From Alphaproteobacteria bacterium (GTDB taxonomy: Bacteria > Pseudomonadota > Alphaproteobacteria > MPNO01 > UBA830), in contig OZ251539.1 of the NCBI GenBank assembly GCA_965243135.1, forward strand, positions 4,608,001-4,672,000: a stretch of 64,000 nt of DNA, given 5' to 3'. The notes beneath the pieces are model-generated. The model ran no database searches, was not told the origin of the DNA, and saw nothing but the letters and a program-made list of their open reading frames with translations. Both the position numbers and the translations under genes were made by a program. Below are positions 30,772-57,621 of this stretch, piece by piece (position 1 is the stretch's first letter; each line of letters begins with the position of its first letter).

Positions 30772-31673
30772 AAACGCCCAGGCCCGCCGTCAACCCGACG
30801 TTGGCGCCGGCCAGGATCCGCCGCCGCGCCGAAGAAGCCGCATCTCATCTTCCGCCTCTGCTGGTCAAGGCGGAACGCGTCGCGACGATCGTCGCCCAAG
30901 GAGTCCACGGTCGCCGCCGGGCGGGAGTCGGCGACGCCTTCTGGCAATACCGCCGCTATCAGCCGGGGGATCCGGTGCAGAGCATCGACTGGCGCCAGTC
31001 GGCCAAGGCGCAGGTGGCCTATGTCCGCGAAAACGAGTGGGAAGCCGCCCAGAACGTCTATCTTTGGGTCGACCGGTCGCGGTCCATGAGCTGGCATTCC
31101 CACCCCGACCTGCCGACCAAAGCGGCGCGCGCGGCGGTGCTGACGCTGGCGCTCGCGTCGCTGCTGGTCCGGGGCGGAGAACGGATCGCCTTGCTCGGCG
31201 GGGGACGGCCCGCCACCGGCCGCGCCGTGCTTTCGCGCCTGGCGGTCGAGTTGTCCCGGGAGACCGGCGGGCAGCCCGGCCTGCCGTCCGTCGAAGGCCT
31301 GCGCCGTCACGGCCGGCTTGTCCTGGTCGGCGACATGCTGCATCCGGTGGAGGAAATAGAACCGGTCATTCGACGCTTTTCCGCGGACGGACACTGCGGC
31401 CACGTCGTTGAGATCCGCGATCCCGCGGAGGAAGCGCTCCCTTTCTCCGGACGCACGAGATTCGAAGGGCTCGAAGGGGAAGGAGCGGCGCTTCTCGGCC
31501 GCGTCGAATCCGTCCGCGGCGAATATGCCGGCCTCGTGGCGGCGAATCGCCGCGCGCTGGCCGACGCCTGCAGAGCGAACGGCTGGTCGTTTTCGCTCAA
31601 CCGGACGGACCAGCCCGTCGAACCCTCGCTGCTCGCGCTGCACATGACGCTGTCGGAGATGGAGCGCATGTAG
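30768..31673 (+). CDS. DUF58 (vWA-like) protein
   Basis: GVHGRRRAG.GD.FWQYR.YQPGD...IDWRQSAK, DRSRSM. Confidence 0.92.
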   Translation: MKTPRPAVNPTLAPARIRRRAEEAASHLPPLLVKAERVATIVAQGVHGRRRAGVGDAFWQYRRYQPGDPVQSIDWRQSAKAQVAYVRENEWEAAQNVYLWVDRSRSMSWHSHPDLPTKAARAAVLTLALASLLVRGGERIALLGGGRPATGRAVLSRLAVELSRETGGQPGLPSVEGLRRHGRLVLVGDMLHPVEEIEPVIRRFSADGHCGHVVEIRDPAEEALPFSGRTRFEGLEGEGAALLGRVESVRGEYAGLVAANRRALADACRANGWSFSLNRTDQPVEPSLLALHMTLSEMERM

Positions 31674-34385
31674 ATGCTGGAACTCGGCGGACTCGCCTTC
31701 TCCTCTCCATGGATGCTCGCGGCGCTGGCCGGGCTGCCGATCCTGTGGTGGCTGCTCCGCGTCACCCCGCCCTCGCCCCGTCTCGTCAGCTTCCCTCCCC
31801 TGCGCTTTCTCCTGGCGCTTCGTCCCGAAGAGGAAACGCCGGCGGCGACCCCGTGGTGGCTCATTCTCCTCCGCATCCTCATCGCCGCGCTCGTCATCCT
31901 CGCGCTTTCCCATCCGCTGCTGAATCCCGGCGTCCGGCTTTACGGATCCGGACCGGTCATCCTCGTCGTCGACAACGGCTGGCCGGCCGCGGCGGACTGG
32001 CCCGCGCGCCAGCGCAAGATCGACGAGCTCCTGGACCGGGCGGAACGCCAGAACAGGCCGGTTCATTTGATGGCGACGGCGGCCGAAGCGCCCGACGCGC
32101 CCATCGGCCCCAGCCGCCTGATGCGCGCCGCCGAGGCGAAGGCGCTAGCCGCGAACCTGTCGCCGAAGCCCTGGCCGACGGACCGGACCCAGGCGCTGAC
32201 CGCGGCGCGCTCGATCCGCGCGGACGGCCCTGCCCATGCGTTCTGGATCGCGGACGGCCTCGGCGGCGGCGAGTCGACGGAGAGGCTGGCGGAAGCGTTG
32301 CAATCCCTCGGCAACCTGACGGTGATCGAGCAACCCGCCGCGGCACGGGCGCGGCTGATCGGAACGCCGGTCGCGGAGGGCCAGGCGCTTTCCGTTCCCG
32401 TCTCGCGGGTGCCGTCGCCGGCCGAATCCCGGATCCGGTTGCGGGCCGTGTCGGAAGACGGACGGCTGATCGCCAGCGAAGACGCCCGGTTCGCCGAAAA
32501 CGCCGGAACCGCGATCGTCCGGATGGCGTTGCCCGCAGAGCTTCGCAACGAGATCGGACGACTCGAAATCGAAGGCGGCCGCAATGCGGGCGAAGTGTTC
32601 CTGATGGACGAACGATGGCGCCGCAGGCCGGTCGGCATCGTGTCCGGCGACGCGTCGGAAGCGGAGCAGCCTTTGCTGTCCTCGATCTATTACCTGGAGC
32701 GCGCGCTCGGCCCGTTCGCCGAAACGCGCCTTGGGAGCGTCTCGAAGCTGCTCGAGCGGGAGATCTCCATGATCGTGCTCGCCGACATCGGCAAGGTTCT
32801 GGAAACCGACGCGCGGTCCCTGGAGGATTGGATGTCGAACGGCGGCGTGACGCTTCGCTTCGCCGGCCCCAGACTCGCCAGCGGCGGCGACGATCTGATC
32901 CCGGTCCGGCTGCGCCGCGGCGGACGCGTTCTCGGCGGCGCCATGTCCTGGGCGGAACCGGCCCGGCTGCTTCCGTTCGAGGAAGCCAGCCCCTTCGCCG
33001 GACTGCCGACGCCACGAGACGTCCGCATCCGCCGTCAAGTTCTCGCCGAACCGGGGATCGACCTCAACCGCAAGACCTGGGCGCGGCTGGCGGACGGGAC
33101 GCCGCTGGTGACCGCGGAAGAGCGAGGAAGCGGCTGGCTCGTCCTCGTCCACACCACCGCGAACACTGATTGGTCGAACCTGCCGATCTCGGGCTTGTTC
33201 GTCGAGGTTCTGCGCCGCATCGTCGGCCTGAGCGCTGGCGTCGGCGGCGAAGACGGCGACGCCCTCCTGCCTCCTCTAATGACCCTGGACGGCTACGGGC
33301 GTCCCGGACCGCCTTCCGCCGACGCGATCAGCATTCCGGCGCGCGCGTTCGAGGATGCCCGGCCCTCGCCGGCCACGCCGCCGGGATACTACGGCCGCGA
33401 CAACGGCCGGCGGGCGCTCAACCTGGGGTCCAGCGCGGCGGACCTGGCGCCGATCGGAGAGCTTCCTTCCGGCGTGGAGCGCCGCGGCTTCTCCTCCAAG
33501 CCGTCGGTGGATTTCAAGCCGTGGCTGTTGCTCGCCGCTTTCGTTCTGGCGATGGCGGATCTCGTCGTCGGCCTCGCCCTTCGCGGATTGCTTCGCTTCG
33601 GAGCGGCCGGACTGGCGCTGCTCGCCGTCCTGCCGGAGCCCGCGCAGGCGGATCCTTCGGACGCGCGGGCGCTGGAGGCGACGCTGACGACGCGGCTCGC
33701 CTACGTGCGAACCGGAGACGCCCAGCTCGACCGCATGACGGTCGCCGGCCTCCGCGGGCTGTCGCGCGTCCTGGAGCGCCGGACTTCGGTCGAGCCGGGG
33801 GCGCCTCTGGCGGTCGACATCGAAACCGACGAGCTCGCCTTCTTCCCGTCGCTCTACTGGGCCGTCTCGCCGCGCCAGGCCGGACTGTCCGAGAACGCGC
33901 GCGACAAGTTGAACCAGTACCTCAAAGCCGGCGGTTCCGTTTTCTTCGACACCGGAGAGCAGGGCGGATTCCTGTCCGACGTTTCGGGAGGGGTCGGCTC
34001 GGCGGGGCTTCGTCTCCGGCAACTGCTGCAGGGACTCGACATACCGCCGCTAATCCGCGTGCCGCCGGACCACGTGCTGACCCGGGCCTTCTATCTTCTC
34101 GACGACTTTCCGGGGCGATGGGCCGGAGGCGCGGTCTGGGTCGAGCGGCGGGGCGGCCGCCACAACGACGGCGTTTCGTCGATTCTCGTCGGCTCCAACG
34201 ACTGGGCCGGGGCGTGGGCGGCGGACGAGGCGGGACGCCCCCTCGCGGCCGCGGTCCCGGGGGGCGAGCGCCAGCGGGAGTTCGCGTACCGCTTCGGCGT
34301 GAACTGGATCATGTACGTGCTGACCGGAAACTACAAGACCGATCAGGTGCACGTGCCCGCCATCGTCGAGAGATTGGGGCAATAG
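31674..34385 (+). CDS. BatA-domain / DUF4159 membrane protein
   Basis: N-terminal BatA-like P..WWLLR..PP....FP; C-terminal FFPSLYW, NDWAGAWA, LTGNYKTDQVHVP. Confidence 0.88.
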   Translation: MLELGGLAFSSPWMLAALAGLPILWWLLRVTPPSPRLVSFPPLRFLLALRPEEETPAATPWWLILLRILIAALVILALSHPLLNPGVRLYGSGPVILVVDNGWPAAADWPARQRKIDELLDRAERQNRPVHLMATAAEAPDAPIGPSRLMRAAEAKALAANLSPKPWPTDRTQALTAARSIRADGPAHAFWIADGLGGGESTERLAEALQSLGNLTVIEQPAAARARLIGTPVAEGQALSVPVSRVPSPAESRIRLRAVSEDGRLIASEDARFAENAGTAIVRMALPAELRNEIGRLEIEGGRNAGEVFLMDERWRRRPVGIVSGDASEAEQPLLSSIYYLERALGPFAETRLGSVSKLLEREISMIVLADIGKVLETDARSLEDWMSNGGVTLRFAGPRLASGGDDLIPVRLRRGGRVLGGAMSWAEPARLLPFEEASPFAGLPTPRDVRIRRQVLAEPGIDLNRKTWARLADGTPLVTAEERGSGWLVLVHTTANTDWSNLPISGLFVEVLRRIVGLSAGVGGEDGDALLPPLMTLDGYGRPGPPSADAISIPARAFEDARPSPATPPGYYGRDNGRRALNLGSSAADLAPIGELPSGVERRGFSSKPSVDFKPWLLLAAFVLAMADLVVGLALRGLLRFGAAGLALLAVLPEPAQADPSDARALEATLTTRLAYVRTGDAQLDRMTVAGLRGLSRVLERRTSVEPGAPLAVDIETDELAFFPSLYWAVSPRQAGLSENARDKLNQYLKAGGSVFFDTGEQGGFLSDVSGGVGSAGLRLRQLLQGLDIPPLIRVPPDHVLTRAFYLLDDFPGRWAGGAVWVERRGGRHNDGVSSILVGSNDWAGAWAADEAGRPLAAAVPGGERQREFAYRFGVNWIMYVLTGNYKTDQVHVPAIVERLGQ

Positions 34386-34386
34386 G

Positions 34387-36390
34387 GTGCTGAGCGTCGC
34401 CTTCGCGCCGATGTTCCCCTGGCCGGCGATCGGCGTCCTGGCCGCCGTCGCCGCGCTGCTCTTCGGGCTCCGCCCGCGAGCGCGGGGCGCCGGATGGCGG
34501 CTGGCGGCGGCGGCTGTGCTGCTGGCCGCGCTCGCCAACCCTTCCCTCGTCGAAGAAGAGCGCGTCGAAAACCCCGACGTGGTCGCCGTCGTCGTCGACG
34601 CGAGCGCGTCGCAGCGCGTCGGCTCGCGCCGGGAACAAACCGACGCCGCGCTGGCCGCGCTTGCGGAACGGCTTCGCGGCATGCGCGGGGTCGAGACGCG
34701 GATCGTCCGCGCCGGCAGCGGCCGGGACGGCACGAAGCTGTTCGACGCCGTGCAACGAACTTTCGCGAACGTGCCCCGGGACCGGATCGGCGGCACGTTC
34801 CTGATCACGGACGGCCAGGTGCACGACGCCGGCGACCCGCCGGTCCCGGGACCGGTCCACGCCCTGCTCAGCGGCTCGCCCGGCGAAATCGACCGCCGGC
34901 TGGAAATCGAGAACGCGCCGCGTTTCGGCCTCGTCGGCAAGTCGGTCGAAATCGACGTCCTGATCCGCGGCGGCGCCGGCGCGGCGCGAATCGCATTGAC
35001 CCAGGACGGAAAGCCGAAACGGACGGTTACCGCGCCTGTCGGACGCAGCCATCGGATTTCGCTCGATCTCGACCACGCAGGCGCGAACGTCCTTCAGCTG
35101 GAGGCCGAGCCCCTCGAGGGAGAGATCGCCCGCGTCAACAACCGCGCGGTGGTGCAGGTCAACGGCGTTCGCGAACGGCTTCGCGTTCTTCTCGTTTCCG
35201 GCGAACCTCACGCCGGAGAACGCGTGTGGCGCAACTTCCTGAAGGCGGACCCGTCGGTCGACCTCATCCACTTCACCATCCTCCGCCCGCCCAGGAAGCA
35301 GGATTCCACGCCGGTGCGCGAGCTGTCGCTGATCGCGTTTCCCACCCGGGAACTGTTCGACGAAAAGATCGCGGAGTTCGACCTTATCATCTTCGACCGC
35401 TACCGCCGCCGCGGCGTGCTGCCCGATCTCTATCTGGAGAACATCGTCCGTTACGTGGAGAACGGCGGCGCGTTCCTGACCGCGGTCGGACCGTCGTTCG
35501 CGACCGAACTCAGCCTTTTCGAAACGCCGCTCGGAAACATCCTGCCCGGCCGTCCCACGGGCCGGATTCTCAAGCGAGGCCTGCGGCCGCGCCTGTCGGA
35601 CTACGGCTTCCGCCACCCCGTCACCGCGGATCTGGCGGACGAAACGCGATGGGGCCGGTGGTTCCGTCAGATAGAAGCCGACGCTGGCCGCGGACGCGTG
35701 CTGATGAACGGCCCCGGCGACCGGCCCTTGCTGATCCTGGACCGGGTCGGCGACGGGAGGGTGGCCCAGCTGCTCAGCGACCACATCTGGCTCTGGGCCC
35801 GCGGCTTCGAGAACGGCGGCCCGCATTCGGAAATTCTGCGCCGCCTTGCGCACTGGCTCATGAAGGAGCCCGACCTGGAGGAAGAAGCCATCGGCGGCAA
35901 GGCCGAGGGCGGAGAACTCGTCATCGTCCGGCGAAGCGCGGCCGGCGAGTTCTCGGAGGTCACCGTCACGACGCCCTCCGGCGCGGTGCGGAAGGTGACT
36001 CTGAAAGCGGACGGACGGGGCCGGGCGCAGGCGTCGATTCCCGCGGAAGAGACCGGGCTCTACAGGCTGGAAGACGAAAGCAGCAGCGCCGTCACCGCCG
36101 TCGGCAATCCCAACCCGCGGGAATTTTCCGACATGCGGGCCACCGCCGAACCGCTCGCCGCCACGACCGCCGCCTCCGGCGGCGGCCTGCATTGGTTGAA
36201 GGACGGCTTTCCGGATTTGAGAAGGGTCCGCCCGGGCGCGACGGCGTCCGGCGAGCGCTGGATGGGCGTGGTGGCGAATCGCGACTACAGGGTCGCGAAC
36301 ATCCGGGAGATCCCGCTCCTGCCCGCGATCGCGGTGCTGATCCTCGGCCTCGGCGCGCTGCTCTGGGCCTGGCGCCGCGAAGGCGATTGA
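34387..36390 (+). CDS. Membrane protein with vWA-like and glutamine-amidotransferase-like domains (MoxR cluster)
   Basis: VVDASAS, ITDGQVHD, VSGEPH.GER.WRN.LK.DPSVDL.HFTILRPP, WLWARGFE.GGP. Confidence 0.85.
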   Translation: MLSVAFAPMFPWPAIGVLAAVAALLFGLRPRARGAGWRLAAAAVLLAALANPSLVEEERVENPDVVAVVVDASASQRVGSRREQTDAALAALAERLRGMRGVETRIVRAGSGRDGTKLFDAVQRTFANVPRDRIGGTFLITDGQVHDAGDPPVPGPVHALLSGSPGEIDRRLEIENAPRFGLVGKSVEIDVLIRGGAGAARIALTQDGKPKRTVTAPVGRSHRISLDLDHAGANVLQLEAEPLEGEIARVNNRAVVQVNGVRERLRVLLVSGEPHAGERVWRNFLKADPSVDLIHFTILRPPRKQDSTPVRELSLIAFPTRELFDEKIAEFDLIIFDRYRRRGVLPDLYLENIVRYVENGGAFLTAVGPSFATELSLFETPLGNILPGRPTGRILKRGLRPRLSDYGFRHPVTADLADETRWGRWFRQIEADAGRGRVLMNGPGDRPLLILDRVGDGRVAQLLSDHIWLWARGFENGGPHSEILRRLAHWLMKEPDLEEEAIGGKAEGGELVIVRRSAAGEFSEVTVTTPSGAVRKVTLKADGRGRAQASIPAEETGLYRLEDESSSAVTAVGNPNPREFSDMRATAEPLAATTAASGGGLHWLKDGFPDLRRVRPGATASGERWMGVVANRDYRVANIREIPLLPAIAVLILGLGALLWAWRREGD

Positions 36391-36410
36391 ACGCCGTCGG
36401 CGCCGGAGAC

Positions 36411-36566
36411 TTATTGGATGCCGAGACCGGCGCAGATGGACAGCACGAAGGACTGAACCAGGTAGACGTCGGCCACCGCGGGGACGGCGAGCGCGCCGAT
36501 CAGTAGCAAAGCTCCGATCAGCAGGTATTCCGGCCGCACGGTCGGCCTTTTGTCGTTTTCGGACAT
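36411..36566 (-). CDS. Small 51-aa membrane protein (below ORF-track cutoff)
   Basis: ATG at 36566 to TAA at 36411: MSENDKRPTVRPEYLLIGALLLIGALAVPAVADVYLVQSFVLSICAGLGIQ; GC-rich third codon positions. Confidence 0.6.
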   Translation of the reverse strand: MSENDKRPTVRPEYLLIGALLLIGALAVPAVADVYLVQSFVLSICAGLGIQ

Positions 36567-36702
36567 GACGCGAGATTAGCGCGTTCGGCAAAGAATTCAA
36601 TGACGGAATTCCGTCCGAGAACGACAGGAAACGGACGGCGGTGTTGCTATCGGCCGAAATACGGAATACAGTCCAGACAACGGTCGGCACACTGATTTTT
36701 CC

Positions 36703-37356
36703 ATGGATTCTGGAACGCAGATCACGGGGGACCCGGCGGCTCGTCCCGCGACGAAGAGAGAGCGGCGAGCGGCCAGCATCGATGCGCTCCTGACGGCCGC
36801 GTTGCGCCTGTTCATCACGCAGGGCTACCACGCCACCACGGTCGAGGAAATCGCGCAATCGGCCGGGCTGACGAAGGGCGCCGTGTATTTCTATTTCAGA
36901 AGCAAGGCGAACGTGCTTCGCGCGCTGCTCGACCGGACGGAGACGCTGACCGTCGCGCCGACCGTCGCCGCCATGGAGGCCGTCGGAAAGGAGCCGCGAG
37001 CGCGCCTCAACGCCTTCATCCGCACGCAGTCGGCGATCGGCGCCGAGAAAACGGAATACATGCTGCTCGCGATCCTGATGAGCGCCGAGTTCAACGGCTC
37101 GGGCGACGAAACCGAAACGAGGCTGCGGGAACTCATGGCGCGGATGGAGGACGCCCTGCGCGACACCGTGACGGCGGGACAGAAAAGTGGCATCTTCCGG
37201 CGCGGGATCGGAGCCGGCGAACTCGCCAGCGTCATCATGGCGACCAACAAGGGTTGCTACGTGGAATGGTACATGCGCCGCGGCGATCTCGACGGTCACG
37301 ACTTCGCGCGCGCCTTTCGGGATTTCGTGGTGAACGGCATCGTGGCGGAACGTTAG
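36703..37356 (+). CDS. TetR/AcrR family transcriptional regulator
   Basis: HTH: A.RLF..QGY.ATTVEEIAQSAGLTKGAVYFYF.SK. Confidence 0.95.
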   Translation: MDSGTQITGDPAARPATKRERRAASIDALLTAALRLFITQGYHATTVEEIAQSAGLTKGAVYFYFRSKANVLRALLDRTETLTVAPTVAAMEAVGKEPRARLNAFIRTQSAIGAEKTEYMLLAILMSAEFNGSGDETETRLRELMARMEDALRDTVTAGQKSGIFRRGIGAGELASVIMATNKGCYVEWYMRRGDLDGHDFARAFRDFVVNGIVAER

Positions 37357-37372
37357 AGAAGATGGAGCGAAC

Positions 37373-38314
37373 ATGACGATTCAACGGGAAGATCCGCGCG
37401 AACGCGCGCTGCAGGAACGCATCGCGGCCGGGCACGTGCTCGAAGACGCCGAGGAGATGACGCCGCGCTATCGGGACGTGCTGGTCAACACGATCCACAT
37501 CGCGGCCGACCTCGAGGTCGTCACGCTGCCCACTTACTCGCCCGCGATTCGCACGTCTCCCACCCTGGAAGACAAGATCGCCATCGCCGCCGCGTGCCAG
37601 GACGAACTCGGCCACGCCCAGATGATGTATCGGATTCTGGAGGATTTCGGCTACGACACGCACAACTTCCTGTTCGAGCGCGACCCCGAGGAGTGGCGCA
37701 CGTTTCAGATGCTCGAATTTCCGCACGAGGACTACATCGAATCGGTCGTGTCCATGTGCTACGGCGACCGCGCCGGCTACATAACGACCGTCGACCTCGA
37801 AGAGAACTGCTCCTACGCGCCGTTTTCGCGGTCGTTGCGCAAGGTGAACTACGAGGAGACGTTCCACGTCGGTCACGGCGAACGCTGGGTCCGCTTCTTC
37901 TGGAACCATTCGGAGGACGCGCGGCGGCGCGTCCAGGAAGCGGTCGATTTCTACTTTCCCCTGTGCGCCGCCTGGTTCGGACTGCCCGACGACCTCAAGA
38001 CGCGCACCGACCAGATCAGATACCGCATCCGCGGCGCCTCGAACGACGAAATGCGCCAGAAATGGCTGTCGCGGATCGTGCCGTTCTCCGAGGGCGTCGG
38101 GATCAAGGTGCCCGCGCATTTCGACGAGGACCGGGGCAAGTACGTGCTGGACTACGAGCCGCCGATCGCGCTGGACGAGGAATCCCGGAAATGGGACTAC
38201 GGAAAGCGGATATCCTGGGAGGAGCAGCTCCGGATATGGAAGAAGGGATCGAAGCACAAGGTGCCGTCGATCAACCGCGTGCTTTCCGAAGTCTGGGGCG
38301 ACGAACTCTGGTGA
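37373..38314 (+). CDS. PaaA-like ferritin-fold diiron oxygenase alpha subunit (divergent)
   Basis: Ligand pattern ADLE, QDELGH, GDRAG, EETFH; CSYAP; WFGLPDD; SNDEMRQ. Confidence 0.85.
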   Translation: MTIQREDPRERALQERIAAGHVLEDAEEMTPRYRDVLVNTIHIAADLEVVTLPTYSPAIRTSPTLEDKIAIAAACQDELGHAQMMYRILEDFGYDTHNFLFERDPEEWRTFQMLEFPHEDYIESVVSMCYGDRAGYITTVDLEENCSYAPFSRSLRKVNYEETFHVGHGERWVRFFWNHSEDARRRVQEAVDFYFPLCAAWFGLPDDLKTRTDQIRYRIRGASNDEMRQKWLSRIVPFSEGVGIKVPAHFDEDRGKYVLDYEPPIALDEESRKWDYGKRISWEEQLRIWKKGSKHKVPSINRVLSEVWGDELW

Positions 38315-38326
38315 GCCTCCGCCGCG

Positions 38327-40996
38327 TCAGCCGGCCGGCATTCCGGAAAGGCTTTCGAGGAAACGCCTGACGGCGACGACCGACGCCGGTCCGTCTCCGG
38401 ACAGGATGCGCATCGCGTCGGGCGGCAGTTCCTCCGGCGCCTTCAACGTCAGGTACTCCGCCGCCGCGTCTGCGTCGTCGGGTTCCGCGTCGCCGCGCAA
38501 GGCCGCCAGCGCGGCGGTCGCGAGCCGGGCCGCCTCGACGATCGGAGCCCGCGCCTCCTCGGCGAAGCCTCCGCCTTCGAGAAGCGCGGCGGCCTTCAGC
38601 TTGCGCTCCGCGCTTTCGGCAAGCGTTTTCATCCGGAGGTCGCGTCCGTTGGGAGCTTCCGCCCCGCCGGCGCCCGGATAGATTTCCCGGAGGTTTTCGG
38701 CCGGCATCGACACCAGTCCCGACTCCGCCAGCCGGAGCATCGTTTCATGCGTGTCCGGATCGATCACGCTCACCCGCAGGCCCGTCGCCTCCGAAAGCCG
38801 GCGTTCTTCCGCGGCGCGGCGCGAAGGCGGCAGCGCGATCACGACGAGCACCGTATCCTCCCGCGCGAGAATGCGGCGCAACGCCGCGCCGTGCCCCGCC
38901 GCAAGATCGTCCCGAAGCTTGTCCAGGGGCGACGGCTCCACGACCGCCTTGTCCTTCTCCTCGCCGAGCACCGCTTCCAGGCGCTCCATGAAAGCCGTCC
39001 GGCTGCTCGGCAAACGGATCTCCGAAAGGTCGCCGCGACGGTCGAGCACGCCTTCCGCCAGCGCCCGCTTGGCGTCCAGCAAGGTGAGCATGCGGGATTC
39101 GATGCTGTTCTCGGTCACCAGGTTAATGACGTTGACGGCGCGAGTCTGGTGCTTGCGCCAGGCGCGAGCCACCCGCTGCTCGAGCCGGGCCGGGTTCCAG
39201 GGCTGGTCCATGTTGACCACGGTGTCGGCCACCTGGAGGTTCAGGCCGACCCCCCCGGATTCGGAGGAGAGAAACAACCGGCAGTCGGGATCCTCGCGGA
39301 ATCTGTGGATTTCGGCGCGGCGCCGTTGCTGCGGGACCGACCCGGTGTGCCAGGCGAAATCGAAGCCGTTCTCCACCGCGTAGCTCCGCACCAGTTCCAG
39401 CATTCGCACCCACTCGGAGAAAACGATGATCTTCCGCTGCGGATCCTCCAGAAGATCGGGAAACAGGCGCTCGATCTCCTCCAGCTTGGGACAATCGACG
39501 TTCTCGTCCCCAAGGATGTACGTCGTGTCGCAGATCATGCGCATGCAGGCGAGATACCGTTGCAGCCTTTCGAATTCTTCCTTCGCCAGCGGCCGCTTCC
39601 GCGCCTGCGCCGCAAGTTTTCTCACGCGATATTCGTAGTCCTCGTAGAGATCCGTCTGGGCTTTGGTCATGTGAACGAAGAAGGTCTTCGTGGCCCGGCC
39701 GGGAAGCTGGCCTTCGACGTCCTCCTTGCGCCGCCGCAGCATCACCGAAGAGATGCGGTTCGCCAGTTCGTCGAGATTTTGAAACCCTTCCGGCCTCCCC
39801 TTTTCGTCCAGGCTGTAGAACTCGCGGTTGAAGCGGAACAGGGGGCCAAGAAGTTCCGGATCCAGGAACTGGACGATCGAGTAGACTTCGTCGATCCGGT
39901 TCTCGAGCGGCGTTCCCGTAAGGACGAACGCGTACTTGCTGCGCAGCTTCTTCACCGCGTTCGCGGTTTTGGTCTGCCAGTTCTTGATGCGCTGGGCCTC
40001 GTCGAGAATCACGATGTCGGGCCGCAGCGTGTCGAGAAGATCCTCGCCGTCGACCACTATCTGCTCGTAGTTGGCGAGCGTGAAAAACGCGGGATCGGCG
40101 TAGATCCTTCGCCGCGCCAGACGGTTGCCGTACACGATCTTCGAGGACAGGTCCGAAAATTTGGCGATCTGCTCTTCCCACTCGGCCTTGAGCGACGCCG
40201 GCGAAATCACGAGCACGCGCGATATGCCGCGCGCCTGACGCAACAACGCGCAGGCAGCGATCGCCTGCACCGTCTTGCCGAGACCCATGTCGTCGGCGAG
40301 CAGCGCACGCTCCCCGAAGGCGAGATGGAGCGCGCCCTCGACCTGATACGGCAGCAACGGCATCTTGAGGAAATCGAGCGAGCGGCGTCCGCTCTCCAGG
40401 TCCGCCGCGAAACGCGCGCGCTCCCGATGCCTGCGATTCGCGGCTTCGCGAGAGGCGACCCACCCGTTCAGCCGCCGGGATACCCGCAAACCGTCGACAT
40501 TGGCCTGCGCCAGTTCGCGGAGTTCGCGAAGGGCTTTCGGCGATCCGCGGCCCACATGAGAGAACAGGCGCTCGACCTCCTGCAGCAGGTCCGAACCCGC
40601 GAACGCTTCCGGGGCCGTCATCTTCGGGAGCCGCTCGTCCGCCTCGTCGAGAAAGATCTCGATGCGGTCGTTCGCCTCCGCCGGCCGCGCGTTGCGGTTC
40701 CGAAGCCGGTGAAGCACGCCTTCGACATGCTTGCAGGTTCCGAGCCGATTGGTGCGGTAGTCCTGGCAATCGCAGGAGTTGACGCGCTCCCGGAGCGAGC
40801 GGATTTCCACCGTATAGCCGCCGCCGCTCGAAGACACGACCCGGTAATCCCCGAAAAGCCGGGAATCGAGCGCTTGCACCTCCTCGATTTCAGTGCGGCC
40901 CCGCCATTCCCGCCGCTTGATCTCGTCCTCGTCCGTGGATATCCAGCCCCGGAAAACGGGCGGACGTTCTTTGGCCTTCTTTTCTTTCTCGGTCAC
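38327..40996 (-). CDS. SWIM zinc-finger SNF2-family helicase
   Basis: CDC...GTCKH SWIM; LLADDMGLGKT, DEAQRIKN, LTGTPLEN, GGVGLNLQ, PWNPARLEQRVARA; GTG start after GGAG. Confidence 0.93.
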   Translation of the reverse strand: MTEKEKKAKERPPVFRGWISTDEDEIKRREWRGRTEIEEVQALDSRLFGDYRVVSSSGGGYTVEIRSLRERVNSCDCQDYRTNRLGTCKHVEGVLHRLRNRNARPAEANDRIEIFLDEADERLPKMTAPEAFAGSDLLQEVERLFSHVGRGSPKALRELRELAQANVDGLRVSRRLNGWVASREAANRRHRERARFAADLESGRRSLDFLKMPLLPYQVEGALHLAFGERALLADDMGLGKTVQAIAACALLRQARGISRVLVISPASLKAEWEEQIAKFSDLSSKIVYGNRLARRRIYADPAFFTLANYEQIVVDGEDLLDTLRPDIVILDEAQRIKNWQTKTANAVKKLRSKYAFVLTGTPLENRIDEVYSIVQFLDPELLGPLFRFNREFYSLDEKGRPEGFQNLDELANRISSVMLRRRKEDVEGQLPGRATKTFFVHMTKAQTDLYEDYEYRVRKLAAQARKRPLAKEEFERLQRYLACMRMICDTTYILGDENVDCPKLEEIERLFPDLLEDPQRKIIVFSEWVRMLELVRSYAVENGFDFAWHTGSVPQQRRRAEIHRFREDPDCRLFLSSESGGVGLNLQVADTVVNMDQPWNPARLEQRVARAWRKHQTRAVNVINLVTENSIESRMLTLLDAKRALAEGVLDRRGDLSEIRLPSSRTAFMERLEAVLGEEKDKAVVEPSPLDKLRDDLAAGHGAALRRILAREDTVLVVIALPPSRRAAEERRLSEATGLRVSVIDPDTHETMLRLAESGLVSMPAENLREIYPGAGGAEAPNGRDLRMKTLAESAERKLKAAALLEGGGFAEEARAPIVEAARLATAALAALRGDAEPDDADAAAEYLTLKAPEELPPDAMRILSGDGPASVVAVRRFLESLSGMPAG

Positions 40997-41092
40997 GTTG
41001 GAATCTCCATGCCAGCCGGTCGACAACCCGATCCGCGTCAAACTATCACAATGTCGAGAATCGCCGAGCCGGCCGGACGCGCCGAAGATGCC

Positions 41093-41121
41093 TTGACGAC
41101 GGCGGAAGATGCGGCCACAAT
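41093..41121 (+). promoter_or_regulatory. Putative sigma70 promoter for the downstream paa-like genes
   Basis: TTGACG-17 bp-CACAAT. Confidence 0.45.
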
Positions 41122-41230
41122 CGCCTCTTGAAGATTGGCGTCACGCTTCCGGGCGAGCGCGGAAAGGACTTCTGAAAGATGCGGCACTCGCGGCGTCCCC
41201 TCCGGACGCGGGCAATTCTTGCGCTACGGC

Positions 41231-41557
41231 ATGAGCGGCGGACCTCCGACGCGCGATGACGTCGCCGCTGCGCTCGAAGCGGTCAACGATCCCCATGTGC
41301 CCGCCAGCCTCCGGAGGATGGGGATGCTCCGCGAAATCGAGGTTTCCGGCGACGGCGTCGTCGTCGTTCGCCTTTGCATTCCTTGCATGGGCTGCCCCGG
41401 CACGGGCCTTCTGCGCGACGCCGTGCGCGACGCCGTCATGTCCCTCGACGGCGTCGCCGACGTGATCGTGGAGGAAGGGTGGCATCTCCCGTGGTCGCGG
41501 GAAATGGTGGATCCCGAGGTCCGGAGCATGATGCGCGCCAACGGCATACAGGTTTGA
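41231..41557 (+). CDS. DUF59 / PaaD N-terminal-like metal-cluster assembly protein
   Basis: AL..VNDPH...SL..MGM, PCMGCP, PWS. Confidence 0.82.
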   Translation: MSGGPPTRDDVAAALEAVNDPHVPASLRRMGMLREIEVSGDGVVVVRLCIPCMGCPGTGLLRDAVRDAVMSLDGVADVIVEEGWHLPWSREMVDPEVRSMMRANGIQV

Positions 41558-41558
41558 A

Positions 41559-41819
41559 ATGACGATCAGAAAGACGATAGACCAGAAACGCGAGCGCGGC
41601 GGGGAGACGCCGAAATATTACGAGGTCTTCGCGCGCAGGAATTCCGGATCCGACCTTTCCCATGTCGGATCGGTGGAGGCGCCGAACGACGATCTCGCGA
41701 AAGTTCGCGCCTGGTACATCTACGATCAGCACCAGTGGCGCGAGATGTGCATCGTGCCGCTCGACGCGATCGTTACCGTCACCGAAGAAGGCAAATCCGC
41801 CAAAATCAAGATGGGATGA
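41559..41819 (+). CDS. PaaB-like small subunit
   Basis: YEVFAR...LSHVGSVEAP...A..RA...Y. Confidence 0.82.
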   Translation: MTIRKTIDQKRERGGETPKYYEVFARRNSGSDLSHVGSVEAPNDDLAKVRAWYIYDQHQWREMCIVPLDAIVTVTEEGKSAKIKMG

Positions 41820-41835
41820 GCGGGGAAGCGGGAGA

Positions 41836-42606
41836 ATGACTTACATACCGGGCGATCCGGGCAGCAGGCTCAACGCGCGTTTCGAGAACGATCTGCTGGC
41901 GATCGCCGACACCAAGCTGGTGCTCGGCAACTGGTACGCCGAATGCGTGATGAACGGTCGCTCGCTGCCCGACTTCGCGGCGATTCTGGGCATGTGCACC
42001 GCCAACTACGGACATACCCGCGCGATCTATCAGTATCTCGCCGCCCACGGCCGCGACTACGTTCACCTCGAACGCGGGCGCGGGCCCGACGACATTCGTT
42101 CCATGAACCTTCTCGACGAAGCGCCCGCGAACTGGGAAGATTTCATCGTCAGCACATGGCTGGCCGAACTCGCGACCTGGATGTTGACGTCCGGGTTTCT
42201 CAAACAGCGAGACCGCGTCGTCGCCGGCTTCGCCAAGAAGATCGGCGAGGAAACCTACTTCCACCTCAAGTACGCGCATGGATGGTTTCGCGTCATCGGC
42301 GAAGGCGAGAAGGAAACCCGGCGATTTCAGGATTCCTACGCTCGCCGCTTTCCTTTGGCGCTGGAGTGGTTCGGCCCGGAGGAAGAGGATCCGGCGGCGG
42401 AGATGCGCGACGCGCCCATCTCCGAACTCCGGCAGGCGTTCGTCAAGCAGGCCGCCGAGGCCGGCGATCTGCTCGGAGCTTCCCTCGAACGGAACGCGGC
42501 CGTCCGGATTCCCGAGAGCTGGCGGACCGACGCCCGCCGGACCGGGCCGATGCCGGATCGGTTGTTCGAAGTCGTAAGGTTCAAGGATTCCGCGCTTGCC
42601 CATTGA
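41836..42606 (+). CDS. PaaC-like ferritin-fold beta (structural) subunit
   Basis: AIADTKLVLG, YGHTRAIY, AKKI.EETYFH...A..W; first ExxH motif degenerate. Confidence 0.8.
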   Translation: MTYIPGDPGSRLNARFENDLLAIADTKLVLGNWYAECVMNGRSLPDFAAILGMCTANYGHTRAIYQYLAAHGRDYVHLERGRGPDDIRSMNLLDEAPANWEDFIVSTWLAELATWMLTSGFLKQRDRVVAGFAKKIGEETYFHLKYAHGWFRVIGEGEKETRRFQDSYARRFPLALEWFGPEEEDPAAEMRDAPISELRQAFVKQAAEAGDLLGASLERNAAVRIPESWRTDARRTGPMPDRLFEVVRFKDSALAH

Positions 42607-42829
42607 GGGCGTTTCCCGGCGCGGCGCGGCGCGGCGGCACCGGGAACTTCATTCGGACGATCCGGACTTCGGAAACGTAACCTGCCCGGATTGCGGCGGC
42701 GGCGATCTGGAAGTGATTTCCCTGTTCGGCGGCGCGGCGTCCGAGGTCATGTTCCGCTGCAATGCGTGCCGTTCCGCCTTCAACTGGATCAAGTGGGACG
42801 GACGGCTTCCGCCGACCGTCGGAGACTGA
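42596..42829 (+). CDS. PaaD C-terminal zinc-ribbon-like protein, stand-alone
   Basis: CPDCG...ISLFGGAASEVMFRCNACRSAF.WIK, matching the PaaD C-terminal pattern CPxC...S.FG...C..C..PF. Confidence 0.75.
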   Translation: MPIEGVSRRGAARRHRELHSDDPDFGNVTCPDCGGGDLEVISLFGGAASEVMFRCNACRSAFNWIKWDGRLPPTVGD

Positions 42830-42889
42830 GCGCCGCAGCGCGTCCGCCGCTCCCGGAAGCGCCCGCTCCCGGGCATGTTCTAGCCGAAC

Positions 42890-43582
42890 CTATTCCGCAT
42901 GCGCTTCCTCGCGACGCAGCCACAACGGATTCTTCAATGTCGCAACGAACGCTTCATGGGCGGCCAACTCATCATCCGTAGGGGCGTGCGGGCGCGGCGG
43001 TCGGGCGATCGTCGCCTCCGGTTCGGCTTTCGCGGCTTCCGCCTTCGCAGAGCCCAGATCGAAACCGGGCTGGCGGCCTCCCCGCAACTCAAGATAAACG
43101 CTGGCCAGCAATTCCGCGTCAAGCAAGGCTCCATGCCTCTCGCGGACCGAAATGTCTATTCCGAAACGGCGGCATAAGGCGTCGAGGTTCGCAGGTGCTC
43201 CGGGAAACCGCCTTCTCGCCATCGACACCGTATCGGTCGCCCGGTCCGACGGGATCGGAGGCCGTCCGATTCTGTACAGTTCCTCGTTGAGAAAGCCGAG
43301 ATCGAACGCAGCGTTGTGAATGACCAGCCGGGCGTCGCCGATAAACGAAAAGAAATCTTCGACGACGCCGTCGAAGGTCGGAAAGCCGGAAAGGAACTCA
43401 GCGCTCAGACCATGCACCTCGAACGCTTCGCGCGGAACGTCGCGTTGCGGATTTACGTACCGATGCCAAGTGTTTCCAGTCGCCACGTGATTGAATAGCT
43501 CGACGCAGCCGATTTCGACGAGGCGATGGCCGTCCTTCGGGTCAAGGCCGGTGGTTTCCGTGTCGAGGACGATTTCGCGCAT
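42890..43582 (-). CDS. dnaQ: DNA polymerase III epsilon subunit
   Basis: VLDTETTG, HNAAFD, HGALLDAELL. Confidence 0.96.
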   Translation of the reverse strand: MREIVLDTETTGLDPKDGHRLVEIGCVELFNHVATGNTWHRYVNPQRDVPREAFEVHGLSAEFLSGFPTFDGVVEDFFSFIGDARLVIHNAAFDLGFLNEELYRIGRPPIPSDRATDTVSMARRRFPGAPANLDALCRRFGIDISVRERHGALLDAELLASVYLELRGGRQPGFDLGSAKAEAAKAEPEATIARPPRPHAPTDDELAAHEAFVATLKNPLWLRREEAHAE

Positions 43583-45675: not shown

Positions 45676-46498
45676 CGCCGCGTCCTGCCTGCAACTTCGT
45701 GTAAAGCTGGAATATCGCCGCGGCCGTTTCCTCGATCGAGCGCCTCGTCACGTCGATCACCGGCCACGCGTTCCTCAGGAACACCCTTCTAGCATCCCTG
45801 ATCTCGTTCTTCACGTTGCCCATGTCGACATACGCCGTCTTGGGATCCTGGCCAAGCATCAGAAGACGATTGCGCCGAATCTGGACGAGCCGATCCACCG
45901 AGGCCGTCAACCCGACTACCAGCGCGCCCCCGGAATCGAACAGCTCGTCCGGCAGGGGCGAACCGGGAACGAACGGTATGTTCGCCGTCTTCAGCCCGTA
46001 ATGGTTGGCGAGATAGATGGAGGTCGGAGTTTTCGACGTTCGGGATACCCCGACGAGAACGAGATCGGCCTCCGAAAGGCTGTCGGCCGCCTGACCGTCA
46101 TCATGCGCCATGACGTAATGAAGCGCATCGATCCGATCGAAATAGTCGGAGTTCAGAATGTACTGGCCGCCAGGACGGTTGACGGTTTTCCGGTTGAAGT
46201 GTCCGGCGAAGACGTCGATGACCGGATCGAGCACCGACACGCAAGGAATGTTCAAACGCTGGCATTCCTCGCGAAGCTCGCGGCTCGTCAGAGCGCTGAT
46301 CAACGTGAATATGACGATTCCCGGATTTTCGCGAATGCCCTCGATCACGGGCTCGAGCTGGCCGGTGGAAAGAATCATCGGCCAAAGGTGCTCAATCGCG
46401 GCAACGCCTTCGAACTGGGCCAAGCAGGCGCGCACGACGCCCTGAGTCGTTTCGCCCGTGGCGTCCGAAACCAAATGTATATGGAAAACCTCGCTCAA
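45659..46498 (-). CDS. ppsR: Kinase/pyrophosphorylase (PPDK/PEPS regulatory protein, DUF299)
   Basis: HLVSDATGET, HDDG, VGVSRTSKTPTSIYLA, SIEETAA; TTG start assumed. Confidence 0.92.
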   Translation of the reverse strand: MSEVFHIHLVSDATGETTQGVVRACLAQFEGVAAIEHLWPMILSTGQLEPVIEGIRENPGIVIFTLISALTSRELREECQRLNIPCVSVLDPVIDVFAGHFNRKTVNRPGGQYILNSDYFDRIDALHYVMAHDDGQAADSLSEADLVLVGVSRTSKTPTSIYLANHYGLKTANIPFVPGSPLPDELFDSGGALVVGLTASVDRLVQIRRNRLLMLGQDPKTAYVDMGNVKNEIRDARRVFLRNAWPVIDVTRRSIEETAAAIFQLYTKLQAGRGDESGG

Positions 46499-46499
46499 A

Positions 46500-46880
46500 C
46501 CGATTCGCCCACAATTCCGCCGATTCGCTCCCGCAGCGGGGATAACCCCGTTCTCCCGCCGAAGCAGCCGAAATCCCTCCCGTTCATTCAATGGATGCTC
46601 AGAGGTTATCATGGATTTCCAAGCAAGGCCACATGTAGCTGAAAAAAGGCGCCATGCACGGAATTCACAATTCCGCGGCTCCCTCTAAATTCAAACCCAT
46701 AAACGATTTTTCCGCGTTATGCACATGAACTTCCGCCCGTATCGCTCCTGAATTGTTTCGTGGATTATCTGTGAACGGAATTTTATCCTCATATTTCATG
46801 CATCAATCTAGATCGAACGAATCTATAAATTATAATTATTTAAATCAAATATATTGTTATTGAATGGAATTCTGCCATAC
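46500..46880. other. Putative chromosomal replication origin (oriC)
   Basis: Intergenic between divergent ppsR and hemE; DnaA-box-like TTATGCACA 46717-46725, TTATCCTCA 46783-46791, CGTGGATTA 46759-46767, CGGGGATAA 46537-46545; very AT-rich tract at ~46820-46865. Confidence 0.75.
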
Positions 46881-46887
46881 TAGGCTC

Positions 46888-47910
46888 ATGGACGTTCGCA
46901 AACCAACGATTGCCGCCTTGCTGGGACGGCGGGTGGATCCGCCTCCTGTCTGGTTGATGAGGCAGGCCGGCCGATACCTTCCGGAATATCTTCAGGTACG
47001 AAAACAAGTTCCGGAGTTCCTCGATCTTTGTTTCGATCCTTTCAAAGCCGCGCAAGTGACGCTACAACCGATCGAAAGATTTAATTTCGATGCAGCCATT
47101 CTTTTTTCCGATATTTTGGTCGTTCCGTACGTTCTTGGACAAAAGGTGGAGTTTGCGGAAGGCCCCTGTCTCGATCCCGTGCGCGATGCCGCTGCGCTTG
47201 CGGCTCTGTCCGTCGATCTGACTCAAGACAGGTTTTCCCCGATCTACGAGACGATCGACAGGGTCAAGGAAAAATTATCGAGCGGCGTCGCTCTGGTCGG
47301 TTTCGCGGGCGCGCCATGGACGGTGGCTACCTATATGGTCGAAGGAGGCGGCAGCCGGGATTACGTGAACGTGAAGCGGTGGGCTCTGGGCGACCCCTCC
47401 GGATTTCAGTCCTTGGTCGATCTTCTGGTCGACGTTACGGCGGATTACCTCAAGGGGCAGATCGCCGCCGGCGCGGATGCCGTCCAGCTATTCGACACTT
47501 GGGCGGGAGTCTTGCCGAAGTCGGCGTTCGACAGATTCTGCGCCGCTCCCGTCCTCGATATTGCGCGGCAGGTGAAATCCGGGCATCCGGATACGCCGGT
47601 GGTGGTCTTTCTTCGCGGATCGGCCGTGAATTTGCCGGAGTTGGCGTCGGCTCCCGAGATTGACGCGATCGGAATCGACCATGCGGTCGATCCCGTTTGG
47701 GCGGCGAAGGAAATCCAGCCGCGAGCGGCGGTCCAGGGAAACCTCGATCCGGTTTTGCTGCTAGCCGGAGGTCCCGAACTGGAGCGCGGGGCGCGAGAGA
47801 TCGTTGATTCGTTGTCCGGAGGAGCTCATGTCTTCAATCTGGGACATGGCATTCTGCCCCAGACGCCGGTGGAGCACGTCAAATTCTTGGTCGACCTGAT
47901 CCGATCATGA
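46888..47910 (+). CDS. hemE: Uroporphyrinogen decarboxylase
   Basis: PVWLMRQAGRYLPEY, AAILFSDIL, GFAGAPWT, FNLGHGI. Confidence 0.97.
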   Translation: MDVRKPTIAALLGRRVDPPPVWLMRQAGRYLPEYLQVRKQVPEFLDLCFDPFKAAQVTLQPIERFNFDAAILFSDILVVPYVLGQKVEFAEGPCLDPVRDAAALAALSVDLTQDRFSPIYETIDRVKEKLSSGVALVGFAGAPWTVATYMVEGGGSRDYVNVKRWALGDPSGFQSLVDLLVDVTADYLKGQIAAGADAVQLFDTWAGVLPKSAFDRFCAAPVLDIARQVKSGHPDTPVVVFLRGSAVNLPELASAPEIDAIGIDHAVDPVWAAKEIQPRAAVQGNLDPVLLLAGGPELERGAREIVDSLSGGAHVFNLGHGILPQTPVEHVKFLVDLIRS

Positions 47911-48926
47911 CCAGAATCGCGGTGGTCGTGTTCAACCTCGGAGGCCCGGACTCGCTCGGAGCGGTTCGTCCATTTCTTAAAAATTTGTTTTCGGATCCGA
48001 TGATCTTGCGCGTGCCCGGCGTTTTGCGCAAGGCGCTGGCAGCTCTGATTTCCCGGCGCCGCGCGCCCGTGGCTCGCGCAAATTACGAAAAAATCGGCGG
48101 TCGTTCGCCCATTCTTTCGGAAACTCGTAAGCAAGCCGTCGCGCTGCAGAACGCCTTGTCGGAAGAAAAGGAAACGTATCGCGTTTTCGTTTCCATGCGT
48201 TATTGGCATCCTTTTGCGGAAGAAACGGTCGCGGAAGTCGCTCGGTGGAAACCCGACCGCGTTTTGCTGCTTCCGCTCTATCCGCAGTTTTCCACCACGA
48301 CGACGGAATCTTTCCTTCGCGTATGGAAGCGGGCTGAGCAAGGAAACGACTTCGATACGCATTTTGTCTGTTGCTGGCCCGATCTCGATGGCTTCGTCCG
48401 TTCCGTCGCGAGCGGCGTCGCAAGCGCCATCGAACGGCTTCCTGCCGGAATTCGGTTTCGAGTGTTGTTCTCCGCGCACGGATTGCCGCAGAAATTCGTC
48501 GATGGCGGAGATCCTTACGAAGCGCAGATTCGCAGAAGCGTGGACGCGGTGGCGAGGAGATTGTCCCTTTGCGGTTCGGATTACGCGATCTGCTATCAGA
48601 GCCGGGTGGGAAGGATGGAGTGGTTGCGACCCTACGCGGAAGACGAGATTCGGCGCGCGGGGGCGGAAGGCGTTGCCCTGGTCGTCGTTCCCATAGCCTT
48701 CGTCAGCGAACATTCGGAAACGCTCGTCGAACTCGATATGGATTATGCCGAACTGGCCGCCTCTTCCGGCGTGCCCAGTTACGAGAGGGTAAGAACCGTC
48801 GGCGACGATCCGAGCTTCATAACGGATCTGGCGGAACTGGTTCGAAGAACCGAATCCAGCGGCCCGGGCGGAAAGGCGTGCGACCCCGCTCTGTCCGAAT
48901 GCCCCTGCCGGGGAAAAGCCGGTTGA
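47907..48926 (+). CDS. hemH: Ferrochelatase
   Basis: NLGGP, MRYWHP, PLYPQFS, FSAHGLP, GDPY, FVSEHSETLVELD. Confidence 0.96.
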   Translation: MTRIAVVVFNLGGPDSLGAVRPFLKNLFSDPMILRVPGVLRKALAALISRRRAPVARANYEKIGGRSPILSETRKQAVALQNALSEEKETYRVFVSMRYWHPFAEETVAEVARWKPDRVLLLPLYPQFSTTTTESFLRVWKRAEQGNDFDTHFVCCWPDLDGFVRSVASGVASAIERLPAGIRFRVLFSAHGLPQKFVDGGDPYEAQIRRSVDAVARRLSLCGSDYAICYQSRVGRMEWLRPYAEDEIRRAGAEGVALVVVPIAFVSEHSETLVELDMDYAELAASSGVPSYERVRTVGDDPSFITDLAELVRRTESSGPGGKACDPALSECPCRGKAG

Positions 48927-49360: not shown

Positions 49361-49389
49361 AAATCTGTGTACCGTCGCGAAATTCTTGC

Positions 49390-49418
49390 TTGACATGGCA
49401 TCCGAAGATCTCCATATT
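49390..49418 (+). promoter_or_regulatory. Putative sigma70 promoter of rho
   Basis: TTGACA-17 bp-CATATT. Confidence 0.6.
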
Positions 49419-57611: not shown

Positions 57612-57621
57612 TCTCTCCTTC

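Follow-up and report, generated by a model that had tools for sequence, protein, structure and literature searches.

A putative PaaABC-type diiron oxygenase subfamily distinct from phenylacetyl-CoA epoxidase, with its gene cluster split by a helicase gene in one alphaproteobacterium

A 64,000-nt stretch of contig OZ251539.1 (hereafter the window), from the 6.1-Mb, single-contig and 98.8% complete genome of an alphaproteobacterium, carries a gene cluster for a PaaABC-like diiron oxygenase. In the reading preferred here, to which a probability of roughly 0.6 is given, this cluster belongs to a rare and scattered subfamily of PaaABC-type oxygenases that are not phenylacetyl-coenzyme A (CoA) epoxidases and that act on a CoA ester, and its operon has been remodelled in this genome. 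The enzyme would be a heteromeric diiron oxygenase with a catalytic alpha subunit, a structural beta subunit and a small bridging subunit, and the cluster would also encode a TetR regulator and, in two pieces, a maturation factor of the PaaD type. The enzyme would epoxidise or hydroxylate a different carboxylic acid, probably an aromatic one, in the form of its CoA thioester, with electrons from a reductase that is either not dedicated to the oxygenase or not adjacent to it. Two changes make up the remodelling: a native SNF2 helicase gene, whose place in same-genus genomes is next to recA, lies here antisense between the alpha and DUF59 genes, and the nitroreductase and enoyl-CoA hydratase genes which follow the cluster in relatives have been lost. 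The genes present, the clade, the residues and the insertion are observed directly, while the CoA substrate, the chemistry, the source of electrons and the transcription units are inferred.

Genes were called from a listing of open reading frames (ORFs) together with Pfam and NCBIfam profile scans of the window proteins (Table 1). An initial annotation of this DNA had listed a TetR regulator, an alpha subunit, a DUF59 protein, a PaaB-like protein, a beta subunit and a zinc ribbon, and the scans recovered all six genes with the features it had given them. The order that it proposed, alpha, N-terminal half of PaaD, PaaB, beta, C-terminal half of PaaD, is correct for the oxygenase genes but not as a contiguous run, because a 2.7-kb helicase gene, which it overlooked, lies between the alpha and DUF59 genes; it was also silent on the loss of downstream partner genes. 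The alpha and beta proteins both exceed the PF05138 gathering score of 28.5, and the PaaB-like protein is 82-89% identical to those of close relatives. The ribbon gene uses a TTG start and overlaps the beta gene at its 3' end. None of the six genes has a broken reading frame, and against same-genus orthologues their dN/dS values are 0.03-0.26 (0.09-0.19 for the TetR gene).

Every Paa-like component stays below its NCBIfam equivalog cut-off. The alpha protein scores 124.3 bits against the PaaA equivalog TIGR02156 (cut-off 280), the beta protein 39.6 bits against the PaaC equivalog TIGR02158 (cut-off 133.35) and the PaaB-like protein 30.3 bits against TIGR02157 (cut-off 85.45). The PaaD model TIGR02159 (cut-off 108.15) is matched by the DUF59 protein over positions 1-88 of 146 (49.1 bits) and by the ribbon over positions 104-144 (31.5 bits), so that the two together amount to PaaD divided over two genes. 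A search of 1.84 billion representative proteins gave 779 homologues of the alpha subunit with an E-value of 1e-3 or better, 25 of which reached 1e-30. Source records name homologues automatically as PaaA, PaaC or PaaI, and the ESM Atlas likewise matched only automatically named PF05138 clusters. When 42 full-length homologues, taken from this search and from a further homologue search, were scored against TIGR02156, 11 passed, eight fell at 190-240 bits, one was a PaaC and the rest reached at most 153 bits; family representatives range from 65 to 153 bits and the 11 canonical ones from 282 to 534. The initial annotation had proposed alpha-subunit phylogeny as a check, and a tree of 56 rows was built (IQ-TREE quick mode, LG+C20, rooted on two PaaC-like rows). 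Here the window alpha falls in a 29-row clade of low-scoring rows only (SH-like approximate likelihood ratio test, SH-aLRT, 97), while all 11 equivalog-passing PaaA rows form another clade with support of 100; it is therefore not nested in characterised PaaA. These comparisons support the view that the region encodes a subfamily distinct from phenylacetyl-CoA epoxidase, as the initial annotation had suggested. In the full-text literature no paper on such a subfamily was found, subscription journals and supplements lying outside the coverage of that search.

The absence of paaE, paaG, paaZ and paaK, first stated for the window, extends to the whole genome, where none passes its NCBIfam cut-off: the best matches are 77 bits for PaaE (TIGR02160, cut-off 420.8), 241 bits for PaaK (646.3), 126.9 bits for PaaZ (562.8) and 222 bits for PaaG (345.15). 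A second PaaB was not found in the genome either. Moreover, in Calidifontibacillus erzurumensis (L095, 7067-13820) a family cluster adjoins a canonical-type paa cluster with a fused PaaD, which fits different jobs for the two.

The alpha subunit nevertheless retains the full catalytic centre that was first read from its sequence. Its diiron ligands align as E48, D77-E78-x-x-H81, D132 and E161-E162-x-x-H165. The six ligands described for Escherichia coli PaaA are E42, E72, H75, D126, E155 and H158 (cited passages of PMC4498308); their counterparts E48, E78, H81, D132, E162 and H165 are each kept in 26-29 of the 29 family rows. In the beta subunit the alpha positions E48, E78, E162 and D132 are K, N, T and E, respectively, and its PDB matches are PaaC chains, in line with the ligand-poor subunit described before. 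Canonical PaaA also holds a lysine bridge of Lys68 with Glu49, and Phe108, which positions the phenylacetyl ring (PMC4498308, same passages). The bridge is present in 11/11 canonical rows and 0/29 family rows, the window protein having A74 and Y55 instead. The Phe108 position is F in all 11 canonical rows, but in the family it is L in eight, F in five, T in five, M in four and V in three, with others besides, and L114 in the window. The basic "door" residue Lys103 of PaaA corresponds to R or K in 26/29 family rows. A segment of E. coli PaaA is replaced by a different helix, as had been noticed and as is visible in the alignment to PDB 3PVR_A. The AlphaFold (AF2) model of the alpha subunit (predicted local distance difference test, pLDDT, 90.8) finds PaaA 3pw8_C as its best PDB fold match, with template-modelling (TM) scores of 0.84/0.87 at 24% identity; PaaC chains are weaker (about 0.67/0.85) and BoxB reaches only about 0.55.

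The distribution of the family was examined by scanning a single genome of each species for the gene pattern, which gave 80 loci. The 72 with at least 39% alpha identity (L024-L095) were taken as the family, and eight at 27-30% (L096-L103) were left out of it. Gene order was read by tblastn with the window proteins. The order alpha, DUF59, PaaB-like, beta, ribbon is found in 51/72 loci, the order with the ribbon before beta in 12/72 plus one cut at a contig end, and alpha, PaaB-like and beta alone in 4/72; the remaining loci are cut at contig ends. In all 67 loci with both genes, the alpha-DUF59 gap is 0-89 bp (median 27). A split PaaD is universal in this family, whereas the canonical loci L095b, L096, L099, L100 and L103 have a fused PaaD. 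In the PCxxCP motif of the DUF59 part, Cys52 is present in 68/73 aligned sequences and Cys55 in 73/73, while the canonical fused PaaDs shown have the second Cys only. All four ribbon Cys are present in 69/69 aligned sequences. A predicted complex of the DUF59 protein and the ribbon, each with its alignment, scored 0.00, with the partner fold uncertain. The family is rare: of the genomes sampled evenly from the class, 3/401 carry it at E <= 1e-70, or 2/337 if only those of high quality are counted. Its members nonetheless occur widely, in Alpha-, Beta- and Gammaproteobacteria, Actinomycetota, Bacillota and one haloarchaeon.

The lack of a PaaE-type reductase is another family trait. None was found when the 846 proteins encoded around the 72 loci were searched, the only FNR-type hit being an unrelated protein in L082, and the sensitivity of this search is limited by its use of only two FNR-type phmmer queries. 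The one recurrent flavoprotein beside the cluster belongs to the nitroreductase family and lies directly downstream in 18/72 loci, all of them in the marine clade nearest the window. It had been proposed that the zinc ribbon or a trans-encoded reductase supplies electrons. For the ribbon this was not supported: it is homologous to the C-terminal part of PaaD, a protein found alongside PaaE in the canonical system, and by homology it would be a maturation-factor domain and not a rubredoxin. In the cited passages of PMC4498308, PaaE is needed for catalysis in vitro and PaaD is not, and the lysine bridge is proposed to share in electron transfer from PaaE. The bridge and PaaE are lost together, a correlation worth noting although it shows no mechanism. 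The absence of a cognate reductase has a precedent, since both PaaD and PaaE are described as non-essential in some strains and conditions (cited passages of PMC13186573).

Further evidence on the chemistry comes from the genes that surround the cluster in relatives. Neighbours within 8 kb of the 72 clusters were grouped into single-linkage families, each named from one representative. A TetR gene is the most frequent (53/72 loci, mostly directly upstream and on the same strand), followed by AMP-binding CoA ligases (45/72) and enoyl-CoA hydratases/isomerases (ECH, 30/72). Nitroreductases were counted in 18 loci, metallo-beta-lactamase (MBL) fold proteins in 17, TRAP DctP proteins and MaoC dehydratases in 15 each, short-chain dehydrogenases/reductases in 13, FlK-type hotdog thioesterases in 10 and 8 (two groups), UbiD in nine, aldehyde dehydrogenases (ALDH) and thiolases in eight each, and FadB-like proteins and class III CoA-transferases in six each. 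The typical order is TetR, oxygenase, ECH, ligase, UbiD, MaoC in actinobacteria; oxygenase, ligase, MaoC, TetR, ALDH, ECH in Azospirillum and Burkholderiales; and TetR, oxygenase, ligase, binding protein, thiolase, FadB in Bradyrhizobium. By analogy, these sets follow the same scheme as the paa and box pathways, in which a ligase and a ring oxygenase would be followed by a crotonase-type isomerase or hydrolase, MaoC with ALDH, and beta-oxidation; a route of ligase, hydroxylase and thioesterase is an alternative. A CoA-thioester substrate, one option in the initial annotation, is therefore favoured by the neighbour genes of relatives. Same-strand ligases directly downstream form several groups at >=40% identity, and together with the variable residue at the Phe108 position this leads us to expect different substrates in different subclades.

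Some of the UbiD genes point further. The UbiD of the Amycolatopsis alkalitolerans cluster (L049:15001-16542) matches phthaloyl-CoA decarboxylase (Pcd; PDB 8PMK/8OZ5) over its full length with 606 bits, and Pcd-like proteins at least 51% identical to it occur in 5/72 clusters (L048, L049, L061, L077 and L078). The cited passages of a 2026 review place phthaloyl-CoA decarboxylase only in anaerobic clusters (PMC13040137), and the clusters with a Pcd-like UbiD may represent an aerobic, CoA-dependent phthalate-type route. NCBIfam gave the cluster-adjacent UbiDs and the nitroreductase generic names only, below cut-off. A furoyl-CoA oxygenase was also considered, with HmfF-like UbiD and molybdenum xanthine dehydrogenase-type neighbours in five loci, and was set aside as too thinly supported. 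In the window, a ligase and a UbiD gene upstream of the cluster (Table 1) may be linked to the oxygenase: the ligase is 63% identical to one that lies about 5 kb upstream, on the opposite strand, in five related marine loci, and the UbiD shares 65% identity with its counterpart in the cluster of Mycobacterium sp. SM1 (L079). As a separate observation, a tblastn search with one UbiD query matched the genome at least 19 times (E <= 1e-10), an unusually large set that has one Pcd-like copy; examples of the family lie at C1:552379-553896, 3514787-3517896 and 5719887-5721287.

The arrangement of the cluster in this genome is peculiar to it. The helicase stop codon lies 12 bp from the alpha stop codon on the opposite strand, and within the fetched flanks of the 72 family loci no helicase match was found. 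Three same-genus genomes align to window positions 36746-38312 and then directly to 41252-42816, so the window carries about 2.94 kb extra. Orthologues of the helicase (66, 66, 66 and 53% identity) are present in 4/4 same-genus genomes, always elsewhere, and in G002 and G004, where synteny is clear, they stand beside recA-alaS. That block is syntenic with the window's own genome near 0.98-0.99 Mb (C1:980002-990000), where other ORFs (C1:983872-984861 and 986135-987313) occupy the old site between recA and the next shared gene. The SNF2 helicase gene appears to have moved from its recA-alaS-adjacent site into the oxygenase operon. Its third-position GC is 0.83, against 0.84-0.86 for its neighbours, and its N-terminal region bears a CxC...CxH SWIM-like motif. 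At the insertion borders no transposase was found, nor any target-site duplication or terminal inverted repeat above short chance-level repeats. Misassembly was rejected as an explanation for where the helicase gene lies, since the two junctions are each crossed by independent contigs. In run X1, which may be the source of the assembly, one 20.6-kb contig spans 37800-41700 without a difference, and contigs of run X3, which belongs to the study of X1, also cross the two junctions. So do two records of run X5, from another study (record 25, 37800-40295, 39 differences; record 32, 40268-41700, 29 differences), whose strain is about 1.6% diverged and has the same arrangement. The helicase is not taken for part of a defence system: PADLOC matches only its SNF2 core to ZorD/DpdE models, and partner genes are absent.

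A second breakpoint lies right after the ribbon gene (42829-42890), where the next gene is dnaQ in convergent orientation. Of the three same-genus genomes, two have a nitroreductase gene after the ribbon, and no match to it exists in the window's own genome. In relatives the cluster is followed by a block of DctP, FlK-type thioesterase and MBL genes, which here is found some 88 kb further on (C1:4738404-4741202). One relative (L024) likewise has neither nitroreductase nor ECH beside its cluster. With the helicase gene antisense, TetR-alpha and DUF59-PaaB-beta-ribbon would be separate transcripts. The sigma-70-like match before the DUF59 gene is the sole one in 36300-43000, and as 0.9 are expected in shuffles only its position is suggestive. 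The promoter and terminator scan gave counts at chance level, with no terminator-like site between alpha and helicase.

Several other explanations have to be weighed against the preferred reading. That the cluster encodes an ordinary, divergent phenylacetyl-CoA 1,2-epoxidase whose remaining paa genes lie at other sites is highly improbable. Its subunits do mirror PaaABCD, its homologues bear Paa names and PaaA is the best PDB match in both sequence and fold, but all four equivalog cut-offs are missed, the clade is separate, the lysine bridge and Phe108 are absent, no PaaE, PaaK, PaaG or PaaZ exceeds its cut-off in a nearly complete genome, and L095 has both kinds of cluster. A BoxB-like substitute is a more tentative matter, possible though rather unlikely. 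It would be a (substituted) benzoyl-CoA epoxidase acting after a ligase and a UbiD-type aryl-CoA decarboxylase in an aerobic hybrid phthalate-type route, as suggested by the five clusters with a Pcd-like UbiD, by the Pcd-like gene of this genome (C1:552379-553896), by ECH, MaoC and ALDH neighbours that parallel BoxC/BoxD and PaaG/PaaZ, and by the restriction of phthaloyl-CoA decarboxylase to anaerobic clusters in the cited passages of PMC13040137. Against it, only 5/72 loci carry such a UbiD, elsewhere the UbiD is of another type or missing, a canonical BoxB is already encoded in this genome, and the variable Phe108 position and several ligase groups argue for several substrates. A bolder extension of the preferred reading, which we regard as unlikely, would make the family the key oxygenase of unrecognised aerobic, CoA-dependent hybrid pathways that lack a PaaE-type reductase and, the lysine bridge having been lost, use a new electron route; in some actinobacteria a ligase would act first, followed by a phthaloyl-CoA-type decarboxylase and ring oxygenation. 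The candidates for this route would be the nitroreductase-family flavoprotein or the two-piece PaaD, in which the DUF59 CxxC and the four invariant Cys of the ribbon could jointly hold an iron or Fe-S centre.

The enzyme might also be a non-CoA diiron oxidase or desaturase which acts on a free acid or carrier-bound substrate and needs no external reductase. No dedicated reductase occurs in the 72 neighbourhoods, the lysine bridge, proposed as an electron path from PaaE in the cited passages of PMC4498308, is absent, and in the nearest genus the cluster is retained although no ligase adjoins it. This is nonetheless quite improbable, as genes that form or process CoA esters are the commonest neighbours, the position of PaaA Lys103 is basic in nearly all family rows, and the overall fold is closest to CoA-binding PaaA. 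Finally, the cluster could be a decaying or silent remnant in which the helicase gene uncoupled alpha from its partners and downstream genes were lost. The antisense insertion just past the alpha stop, with no terminator-like site between, the nitroreductase without a match in the genome and the displaced DctP/thioesterase/MBL block are consistent with this; six intact frames at low dN/dS, an arrangement kept in a diverged strain from another study, a weak promoter-like site 5' of the DUF59 gene, and the lack of an adjacent nitroreductase and ECH in L024 make it unlikely.

A number of points weigh against the reading of a working CoA-ester oxygenase of a separate subfamily. No ligase, hydratase or thioesterase adjoins the cluster in the window, and the helicase insertion together with the lost downstream genes could mean that the system is idle here. 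Since dS is near saturation (0.7-2.3), recent relaxed selection would escape notice. The tree is a quick search with its root on two long PaaC-like branches. The neighbour families rest on single linkage and one representative name each, and their counts are not independent because many loci are close relatives, about 25 of them from one marine clade. Furthermore, NCBIfam gives the adjacent ligases and hydratases generic names only, all below cut-off, which points to no substrate.

To our knowledge, PaaABCE and BoxAB are the only ring epoxidases for CoA esters whose biochemistry is known in detail. They define the "hybrid" routes by which aromatic acids are broken down aerobically. A further conserved clade, with a residue signature of its own, a split maturation factor and no cognate reductase, would point to more substrates handled in this way, maybe phthalate-type plastic-related acids, and to a different electron feed for the diiron centre. 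Moreover, automatic annotation of its members as PaaA, PaaC or PaaI inflates the phenylacetate-degrading potential that is inferred from genomes, for example in studies with PaaA or PaaC as pathway markers. The window is also a clean natural example of an operon split through a relocated housekeeping-type gene. A specialist in aromatic catabolism would ask first for the substrate; the split operon is a curiosity.

Table 1. Oxygenase cluster, inserted helicase gene and possible partner genes, in positions of the 64,000-nt window
Feature	Position	Strand	Evidence and remarks
AMP-forming acyl-CoA ligase	23066-24667	-	Pfam; possible partner, 10-13 kb upstream, divergent from UbiD gene
UbiD-family decarboxylase	24925-26475	+	Pfam; possible partner, 10-13 kb upstream
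TetR-family regulator	36703-37356	+	PF00440, 67 bits; 16 bp 5' of alpha gene
Alpha (catalytic), PaaA-like ferritin-fold diiron protein, 313 aa	37373-38314	+	PF05138, 170.7 bits
SNF2-family helicase, 904 aa	38327-41041	-	PF00176, 152 bits; PF00271, 75 bits; between alpha and DUF59 genes
Sigma-70-like promoter match	41093-41121	+	110 bp 5' of DUF59 gene
DUF59 protein, N-terminal PaaD half, PCxxCP motif	41231-41557	+	PF01883, 53 bits
PaaB-like small bridging subunit	41559-41819	+	PF06243, 31.6 bits (cut-off 27)
Beta (structural), PaaC-like, degenerate ligands	41836-42606	+	PF05138, 82.8 bits
Stand-alone Cys4 ribbon, 77 aa, C-terminal PaaD domain	42596-42829	+	PF23451 (Zn_ribbon_PaaD), 44.7 bits

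Other features of the window were recorded in passing. Directly upstream of the TetR gene is a set of MoxR, DUF58 and BatA-DUF4159 genes with a 667-aa protein of no family (29764-36390), and the MoxR/DUF58/BatA-DUF4159 set also lies upstream of the cluster in L024, L038, L040, L041, L043 and L044. At 7424-9368 a DDE transposase ORF comes after an ORF that Pfam matches to DruA of Druantia (95.7 bits), and PADLOC is silent on both. The G+C content falls to 0.555-0.593 at 46001-50000, between a gene for a kinase like the phosphoenolpyruvate synthase regulator and rho, compared with about 0.65-0.70 elsewhere; inside this stretch no gene was called at about 47910-49467. At 56562-61056 a CDGSH iron-sulfur and cupin protein (350 aa) overlaps the start of a 1162-aa ORF, whose C-terminal 700 residues hold hydantoinase/oxoprolinase A domains.

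Among known proteins, the uncharacterised PaaA/PaaC-like SSO1313 of Sulfolobus (PDB 4MUD) has the PF05138-type ferritin fold in common with the alpha subunit; it is shorter (235 aa) and scores only 49.8 bits. BoxAB, the benzoyl-CoA 2,3-epoxidase, is likewise a diiron ferritin-fold enzyme that acts on an aryl-CoA, and downstream of it work an ECH-family ring-opening enzyme and an aldehyde dehydrogenase, with similar neighbours in relatives of the window cluster (cited passages of PMC4498308). BoxB differs in being a monomer of about 470 aa with its own reductase, BoxA, as opposed to 313 aa for the window alpha, and besides the low TM score it gives no sequence match in the PDB search. The only BoxB over the TIGR03225 cut-off in the genome, at C1:4011478-4012890 (839.6 bits), lies away from the cluster. 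An ECH-family ORF adjoins that gene, and a weak PF05138/BoxB-like ORF (37 bits, C1:1270504-1272159) beside an enoyl-CoA hydratase gene may be a third ferritin-like oxygenase.

The closest known system is PaaABC(D)E of E. coli and Klebsiella (PDB 3PW1, 3PVR and 4IIT). The two are alike in their diiron alpha subunit, with the same six ligand positions and the same overall fold, in a same-fold, iron-free beta subunit, in a bridging subunit and in PaaD-type domains. They differ in sequence, with 23-24% identity, separate clades and every equivalog cut-off missed, and PaaABC(D)E has the K68/E49 bridge, Phe108 and PaaE, which the window system lacks. Furthermore, PaaD is fused in the canonical system, whereas in the window family it is divided over two genes and its DUF59 part has an extra Cys. 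The neighbours of the canonical genes include PaaK, while those of the family are fatty-acyl-type AMP-binding ligases, UbiD and TetR.

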